64,000 nt of DNA from Longimicrobiales bacterium (lineage in GTDB: Bacteria > Gemmatimonadota > Gemmatimonadetes > Longimicrobiales > Gaopeijiaceae), in NCBI GenBank assembly GCA_965226375.1, contig CBDDCX010000008.1, positions 1,312,001 to 1,376,000 on the forward strand, written 5' to 3'. Below the pieces are notes generated by a model, which was not told the origin of the DNA, searched no databases, and was given only the letters and a program-made list of their open reading frames with translations. The stretch's first letter is position 1; each line of letters begins with the position of its first letter. Positions 3,403 to 23,701 of this stretch are shown piece after piece. A program made the translations under genes and the position numbers.

Positions 3403-3495
3403 CCCGAGGGCTGCGGCCCGCTCATGAATGTCGGACCGAGTGTCCTGTCCCGGAAATACGCCGGCATTCAGGACCGTATTTCTGGGACAGGACAC

Positions 3496-12641: not shown

Positions 12642-12902
12642 TCTCTCCATAGATGAAGGCGTGCTTCCGACGTAACCGATGTGGTGTGCGTCCTCGGGCG
12701 ACGAATGCGATTCATGGTGCGAACAACATCTACACGCGGAAGTAGCGCACACATTGAAATAGAGCGCAAAGATGTGGGCCGACGGCGGACCGCGCGAGTT
12801 TGGAAGTGCGGGAGTCCGTGCTTCGAGACCCTGGCGCCATCTCGGCTCTGTTGCGCGGCTAAGATGTAGAACGGGCGTGAAGCGCGCGACCCGGCCGCCG
12901 AC

Positions 12903-13115: not shown

Positions 13116-13558
13116 TCGAGGGACCGCCCGTGGCCCAGAGCCCGAGCAATCTCAATTAAGCGGAGGGGGTGGGATTGACGTCGCTTCGCGACGTCGTCTC
13201 GCGGAAAGACCGGCTCGGCCGCATGCGCGGTCTTTCATCCTGACCGCTCGGCTCGAACCCGCGAGGCGCCCTTCTGGGAAGGGCGCGTGGGTTCGAACTC
13301 GAGAATGTCGAGGACCACCCGTGGCCCAGAACCCGAGCAATCTAAATTAAGCGGAGGGGGTGGGATTGACGTCGCTTCGCGACGTCGTCTCGCGGAAAGA
13401 CCGGCTCGGCCGCATGCGCGGTCTTTCATCCTGACCGCTCGGCTCGAACCCGCGAGGCGCCCTTCTGGGAAGGGCGCGTGGGTTCGAACTCGAGAATGTC
13501 GAGGACCACCCGTGGCCCAGAACCCGAGCAATCTAAATTAAGCGGAGGGGGTGGGATT
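13116..13558. repeat. tRNA-linked tandem repeat, 191-bp period, about 2.3 copies
   Basis: CGGAGGGGGTGGGATT starts at 13161, 13352 and 13543 (the last is the tRNA itself). The two full units are identical by eye; the distal partial copy 13116-13160 has several substitutions. Confidence 0.95.
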
Positions 13559-13626
13559 CGAACCCACGAGTCCTTGCGGACGCCGGTTTTCAAGACCGGT
13601 GCATTGAACCGCTCTGCCACCCCTCC
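13543..13626 (-). tRNA. tRNA-Ser (anticodon TGA)
   Basis: GGAGGGGTGGCAGAGCGGTTCAATGCACCGGTCTTGAAAACCGGCGTCCGCAAGGACTCGTGGGTTCGAATCCCACCCCCTCCG: 7-bp acceptor stem, CCGGT/ACCGG anticodon stem, long variable arm, G discriminator, no encoded CCA. Confidence 0.96.
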
Positions 13627-23549: not shown

Positions 23550-23701
23550 AGTCGCTCCTGTCAGGAAAGCTGGAAGGTTGAACTGGTGTCCAGAATCAGG
23601 TTCTGTGCGGGCATCGGTGGCCCGACAATACGCCAGTCGACGTCAGGGTGTTCCAGGGGTGCCAGCGTACTTCCGGGACAGGACACGACGCCCGCGGCGA
23701 A

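Follow-up and report, generated by a model that had tools for sequence, protein, structure and literature searches.

We found that the tandem array behind the tRNA-Ser(TGA) gene of the window (the whole 64-kb stretch of DNA that was analysed) is best read as a tRNA-linked repeat of a distant RtT type, with a 77-base double-hairpin core that is likely to be a gene-less mobile element which would fold as single-stranded DNA and be moved in trans by an enzyme; we give this reading a probability of roughly 0.6. The core is likely to be a tiny piece of gene-less mobile DNA because related cores are present at, or cleanly absent from, matching sites in the same genome, and the mobile unit is likely the core and not the 191-bp unit which contains it. 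What is new here is the evidence that a related core has exact ends and occupies unrelated sites.

ARAGORN placed an intact tRNA-Ser(TGA) gene at 13542-13626 on the minus strand (Rfam tRNA score 62 bits), in which CCA is not encoded. The purH gene lies directly upstream of the tRNA, and the neighbours of the array are purH and an arylsulfotransferase-like gene. TRF reported a repeat at 13116-13558 with a period of 191, 2.3 copies, 98% matches and a score of 856, and alignment of the units at 13541-13351 and 13350-13160 (191 bp each) gave 100% identity, confirming the two identical units which a first-pass annotation of this DNA had placed behind the tRNA. The same annotation had described a diverged partial third unit; a diverged copy is indeed present at 13116-13159 (minus strand), but this comprises only about 40 nt of trailer, with 3 substitutions in 39 aligned bases relative to the trailer, and contains no insert. 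It probably represents what is left of a third unit.

In transcript order, each unit consists of a 39-nt trailer, a linker, an inverted copy of the T-arm, a cap hairpin, a direct copy of the T-arm as far as A58, the core and the tRNA 3′ end. The features of unit 1, all on the minus strand, are as follows. The trailer (13503-13541) is specific to this locus and is not common to relatives, whose BLAST matches begin mainly at around query position 50. The inverted copy of the T-stem 5′ strand and T-loop of the host tRNA (13477-13488; inverted-repeat pair I5) is followed by the cap (13458-13476), which in orthologues shows compensatory changes and often a GNA loop, and by the direct copy of the T-stem 5′ strand and T-loop to A58 (13444-13454), which carries one substitution. 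The 77-nt two-hairpin core, the putative mobile unit, lies at 13367-13443 and scored 52.9 bits with our covariance model R1, which includes this copy, and the tRNA 3′ end from position 59 is repeated at 13352-13366. Unit 2 (13160-13350, minus strand) is identical to unit 1 and has its core at 13252-13176. A 77-nt insert in the T-loop had been correctly recognised in the first-pass annotation, but its boundary, drawn there at 13177-13253 and 13368-13444, falls one base later, after A58 (13443-13367 and 13252-13176), since the register is fixed by relatives whose core ends in C and by head-to-tail cores. The insert is also not the palindrome that had been proposed; it is made up of two hairpins. 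All three of the hairpins described for each unit do appear in the predicted fold, which is more stable than expected both as RNA (z = −4.85) and as DNA (z = −3.77), with none of 200 shuffles equally stable. One feature had been missed: what forms the 5′ arm of the first hairpin is the T-arm of the tRNA itself, copied in inverted orientation (pairs I4 and I5).

In an Rfam scan of the region only the tRNA passed. Two other families were considered at the array and rejected, as the sX4 match overlaps the tRNA and the Acido-Lenti-1 match is confined to a hairpin and reached 13.8 bits against a cut-off of 37. No promoter-like site was found, and the one terminator-like site was at chance level. 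Elsewhere in the window's own genome (G000), two tandem tRNA-Gly(CCC) genes which lie 140 bp apart have repeated trailers (G000:C8:1230703-1230915).

We compared the unit to 61 genomes by BLAST and found matches in 16, nearly all of them outside the trailer; within the window's own genome, related units were found behind tRNA-Cys and tmRNA. Among the relatives which we inspected, the trailer varies between genomes, the arms and the 3′-end repeat track the host tRNA, and the core is common to all. A 23-base, two-block core pattern taken from the window retrieved at least 116 stretches from the genome collection, and 79 loci were examined among the matches listed; these belong mostly to Gemmatimonadota and Enterobacterales. 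Among these listed matches, 51 of the 79 loci had a called tRNA or tmRNA no more than 700 bases upstream, with hosts including tRNA-Lys (n = 24), tRNA-Pro (n = 9), tRNA-Arg (n = 6), tRNA-Ser (n = 4), tRNA-Cys (n = 3), tmRNA (n = 3) and tRNA-Tyr (n = 1), and one locus inside a tRNA array. The position of the T-loop junction is the same in most of the 51. By eye, the other 28 loci included 6 chance matches in coding DNA and 8 cores lying directly in displaced tRNA fragments, the remainder being contig edges, spare tRNA copies and partial loci. A 14-base motif used alone was dropped as a search pattern for its lack of specificity, with 4 of 30 loci behind a tRNA and matches to the reversed control as well. 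In Rahnella (L112, L089 and L092) the inverted arm resembles a tRNA-Lys T-stem variant of Serratia, and the 3′-end repeat agrees with the current tRNA, which suggests that the inverted arm and the 3′ end may be refreshed at different rates.

The covariance model R1, built from 53 Gemmatimonadota-type cores, matched 23 of the 36 genomes of the family, 0 of 12 in one sister family and 2 of 12 in another, the latter two matches being weak and likely due to chance. The spread of the element within the family is patchy, and it should be noted that the absences in 13 of the 36 genomes are uncertain, as the genomes are incomplete.

The link to the E. coli tyrT/rtT repeats which the first-pass annotation had raised turned out to be closer than proposed, with both the architecture and core motifs common to the two. 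Known for decades, the tyrT repeats of E. coli are catalogued as a small RNA, and several RtT copies are carried by laboratory E. coli; in the tyrT/tyrV repeats of K-12 the order of the parts and the junction are the same as in the window array. A core from Rahnella matched 2658 of 5426 E. coli genomes, and all 15 among the matches listed were in annotated RtT features. When loci retrieved with the window-derived pattern were tested against the Rfam RtT model (RF00391), 7 of 7 from Enterobacterales and Marinobacterium passed, with 50-88 bits, and 0 of 11 from the window's own subfamily did so. On the array, RF00391 gave no RtT match at E values up to 10, and its best score in the genome was 15.7 bits, the gathering score being 45. 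In the reverse comparison, model R1 ranked five RtT copies above all other matches at two E. coli loci, but at 11.6-16.7 bits, with a bare T-loop scoring 8.6. The TRIP1 repeats of E. coli were also considered and dropped; in the accessible part of their description these are 146-273-bp repeats between protein genes (PMC10888264).

Model R1 also matched sites in the window's own genome which are not tRNAs, and searches of 201 genomes for two such site types found both empty and filled examples. A MITE of approximately 164 bp with terminal inverted repeats occurs with and without a 69-nt core at one position, and searching for this site gave 29 matches in 16 of the 201 genomes: 20 empty, 8 filled and 1 chance match. 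Both states were found within single genomes, with 4 empty and 3 filled in G000 and 1 empty and 4 filled in another genome of the collection (G001). Empty copies include G000:C8:1698038, C5:229718, C2:39445 and C8:1097090, and filled copies G000:C5:146683, C8:1811033, C8:140224 and C8:545077. The MITE cores are 55-65% identical to the window core (a chance match gives 45%). In G000, a core that is 97-99% identical between copies lies in two MITE variants, each of which has an empty twin, and these two variants differ within a few bases on both sides of the core. Since each of the filled MITE copies is 69 nt, a single ancient insertion could account for them all, with gene conversion having spread it or deletion having removed it. 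The core itself was rejected as a classical MITE, as its ends are not inverted repeats and there is no duplication relative to empty sites. This MITE family has terminal inverted repeats bounded by CTAG and an interior stretch which resembles the central junction of the core, and is represented in the window by two short, internally deleted derivatives at 3437-3495 and around 23660-23688.

The second site type, labelled attC-like from its end motifs by eye and without a model, gave 13 matches in 7 of the 201 genomes, including 10 empty and 3 filled sites, one of the filled ones being a tentative remnant in the window. This remnant (12841-12890, minus strand) carries what appear to be the first six bases of a core, with a tentative junction at 12847|12846, and its flank matches empty and filled attC-like sites elsewhere. 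Dispersed attC-like repeats are found at G000:C8:913069, 978105, 2266030 and 903914 and at C7:610166, far from the integron integrase at C4:70278. Cores were also found joined head to tail, with the end of one core running straight into the start of the next, at six distinct junctions, and in one genome (G011) two different cores lie in tandem within a tRNA fragment. Cores in further repeated targets which are not tRNAs (L358, L367, L384 and L403; L371 and L378) have a junction of the same kind.

The classes of site which contain cores are T-loops of tRNA and tmRNA, displaced tRNA fragments, the MITE, attC-like sites and the end of another core, and in all of these classes the core is immediately preceded by an A and followed by ATCC, CTCC, ATGC or ATCG, and the target is not duplicated. 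In metagenomes, 84 matches were analysed from 80 of 122 stretches; 67 of these were cores with a recognisable left end and measured 57-110 nt, and the remaining 17 comprised contig edges, degenerate ends and tandem cores. No gene-bearing (autonomous) core, whether enclosing a gene or split by one, was found among the 84 metagenome matches, and viral contigs gave no exact match to two core patterns.

We aligned the 53 cores and found that 93.2% of 805 cells were paired (none of 500 shuffles was as high, and slid controls did not come near), and that both sides change in 10 of the 16 pairs (65 cells with double changes). Since these rows are related to one another, and most of them were collected with a pattern which fixes part of the first hairpin and so inflates conservation, it is the second hairpin which carries the weight of the covariation. 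Opposed GA steps near the hairpin base were found in 52 of 53 cores in the first, pattern-fixed hairpin and in 48 and 44 of 53 in the second. Hairpins of the type C(GNA)G were counted 50 times (5.1 in shuffles), GNRA loops 4 times (4.2 in shuffles) and UUCG not at all. G-T pairs made up 5 of 750 pairs in core stems versus 21 of 490 in the stems of 41 tRNAs of the genome (P = 2e−5, which is overstated given the kinship of the rows). GNA triloops and tandem G.A pairs have particularly high stability in DNA, and tandem G.A pairs also occur in RNA. Taken together, the covarying stems, GNA triloops and scarcity of G-T pairs point to a core which would fold as single-stranded DNA.

Based on these patterns, we propose that the core forms two hairpins which abut each other and carry a tandem G.A pair close to the base of each, as suggested by covariation, so that its ends would be brought together in a roughly two-fold symmetric dumbbell. 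By analogy with the miniature derivatives of IS200/IS605, an enzyme would cut this dumbbell and rejoin it into DNA exposed as a hairpin or loop. The core is inserted alone where it occurs in spare tRNA copies or displaced tRNA fragments; where the tRNA is a sole copy, the gene is intact and the core is found behind it, in a rebuilt copy of the T-arm with an inverted arm. Template switching is the likely origin of this rebuilt copy. Amplification of the 191-bp unit would then probably be due to recombination of the tRNA 3′ end with its repeat, the two having 23 identical bases in common, and a crossover in these bases would give the identical middle copy which is observed. The first-pass annotation had the array growing from the tRNA side. 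The three differences in the distal trailer agree with this, but the same pattern would result from a crossover in the common tRNA 3′ end. If tRNA processing does release an RNA, this would be a by-product or would have been co-opted secondarily.

We looked for an enzyme which might move the core and found no candidate, in searches which divergent enzymes could escape. The Y1 transposase (PF01797) was found in 1 of the 36 family genomes, a non-carrier, in none of the 23 carriers and not in G000. Integron integrases were present in 8 of 23 carriers versus 1 of 13 non-carriers (P = 0.11) and in G000, and were rejected as the mobiliser, since they are not required and their association with the core is not significant. 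At G002:C3:1028977-1030403, a core-bearing tRNA has an integron integrase gene next to it, and behind the tRNA-Ser(TGA) locus of G001 there is a gene start which we take to be similar to an integron integrase. The multicopy group II intron and the IS110 of the genome were also set aside, as their ends have no visible link to the core; the reverse transcriptase gene of this intron is present in seven equal-scoring copies (G000:C6:336967 and six other places), one of them truncated.

Several other explanations of the array were considered. The unit may serve mainly as an RttR-like small RNA of the host, freed from the tRNA precursor and retained for regulation, for example through pairing of the inverted arm with the tRNA T-arm, although we think this unlikely. 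It is built like E. coli RttR, whose annotation is of a 171-nt RNA that stops at the CCA of the tRNA-end repeat; the unit is always sense to the tRNA, and the cap hairpin covaries at tRNA-Ser(TGA) across genera. RNA release has been reported for RttR of E. coli, with its mode of action called unknown (bioRxiv 10.1101/2024.07.17.603846, accessible part), and RtT RNAs have been detected in Actinobacillus by Northern blots (PMC4986893, accessible part). However, the loops which are enriched are GNA triloops and not GNRA, G-T pairs are scarce, CCA is not encoded in the window array, the element was not found in 13 of the 36 family genomes searched, and cores also sit in MITEs, attC-like sites and tRNA fragments, where a role as RNA is unlikely. 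We also consider it improbable that the core is the hairpin partner of a small Ssn-like GIY-YIG nuclease, a transient visitor which would nick single-stranded tRNA genes and spread by way of homing-like repair. SsnA does bind a hairpin and cut single-stranded DNA beside it (PMC11893778, accessible part), but its degenerate SRM motif was found neither in the array nor in any of the 53 cores, no small GIY-YIG gene was detected in the 36 family genomes or G000 (divergent enzymes could escape this search), and a simple pattern gave no GIY-YIG-like motif beside the scanned loci of the collection. GIY-YIG frames of under 200 aa were found in 4 genomes of another family, all without the core, and the two GIY-YIG matches in G000 lie inside a 634-aa frame and a 393-aa gene.

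Movement without any dedicated enzyme, through host template switching and short-tract gene conversion among hairpin-rich repeats, with the array as a neutral local duplication, would agree with the lack of a candidate enzyme co-occurring with the core, with a direct-inverted-direct layout that is the expected trace of template switches, and with a junction microhomology of one base only; this too is improbable in our estimation, as the same exact ends recur in unrelated targets with only around 5 bases in common and the stems are maintained by compensatory change. The first-pass annotation had suggested a non-autonomous miniature element, a description that fits the 77-nt core but does not fit a unit of 191 bp inserted by a tyrosine integrase. 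A 191-bp circle integrating in tandem at the T-loop by such an enzyme would explain a junction in the T-loop, and the genome has 20 tyrosine-recombinase (PF00589) matches, but none of these is in the 64-kb window, the trailer is not common between genomes and the trailer and arms are specific to the locus, and related cores insert at non-tRNA sites with neither a tRNA end nor a duplication, so we give this possibility very little weight. The head-to-tail core junctions are seen as joints in chromosomes and not as circles. The second unit could conceivably be an assembly artefact, with a true locus of one unit, given that the units are 100% identical and that the tRNA-Ser(TGA) locus of one relative (G002) appears twice in one contig (G002:C3; L009 and L035), once with two units and once with one, which reflects either assembly overlap or strain variation in copy number. 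We regard such an artefact as highly improbable, as diverged arrays of two to four units are found in G002, G026, G023, G161 and G172, and it would bear on the copy number only and not on the element.

If the core is indeed a mobile single-stranded DNA element, it would be one of the smallest mobile DNAs, the way it inserts into hairpin DNA without a scar could be useful chemistry, and it could alter integrase and integron sites by landing there. Exact ends for a related core are defined by the empty and filled sites and by the cores joined head to tail, and how RtT repeats originated thereby becomes a question of transposition that is testable in laboratory E. coli. Much more tentatively, RtT cores from E. 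coli to Gemmatimonadota might form one widespread class of single-stranded DNA dumbbell transposons of 60-110 bases, which would insert after the A of A-[A/C]T[C/G][C/G] in exposed hairpins (T-loops, attC-like sites, MITEs and each other) and be moved by an undescribed or host-encoded single-stranded DNA recombinase, none of the resident Y1, Ssn or nearby integrases being responsible.

The array resembles known systems to different extents. The T-loop is a known crossover zone of tyrosine integrases, and the array is like tyrosine-integrase islands in having its junction in the T-loop and a repeated tRNA 3′ end; unlike these islands, it has no integrase or cargo, and its core enters sites which are not tRNAs. 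The miniature derivatives of IS200/IS605 and the REP/REPIN elements are gene-less, have hairpin ends and are moved by Y1 HUH enzymes. The core is likewise gene-less, inserts beside a short motif without duplication and has hairpins at both ends, and its predicted folding is of the single-stranded DNA type of the IS200/IS605 derivatives. It differs from IS200/IS605 and REP-RAYT systems in that carriers have no Y1 transposase, in that its hairpins abut its ends and in that it targets T-loops and other hairpins. Both of these groups are briefly discussed in the accessible part of PMC11893778, where the Ssn NTS/SRM sequences are, like the core, small DNA hairpins with GNA-type loops which end near an AATC motif; the core is unlike them in that the SRM pattern is unmatched and no small GIY-YIG gene is present, and the accessible main text of that paper makes no mention of tRNAs.

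RtT (RF00391) is the closest of these systems. The window array differs from it in lying below the Rfam cut-off, in its longer first hairpin and different second hairpin, in the absence of an encoded CCA and in belonging to another phylum. The RtT literature, so far as it is accessible, treats RtT as a host RNA and not as a mobile insert, and a full-text literature search (most subscription journals and older papers being outside its coverage) found no description of RtT cores as mobile inserts. Like RtT, the array lies behind a tRNA in the sense orientation, repeats the tRNA 3′ end from the T-loop, has an inverted T-arm copy before a direct T-arm split after A58, and contains a multi-hairpin core in tandem copies, and the core sequence blocks are common to both, to the extent that the 23-base pattern derived from the window retrieves RtT members. 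Given this RtT-like build and these common motifs, together with scores below the Rfam threshold, the window element is not a member of RtT by the Rfam criterion but is probably homologous to it.
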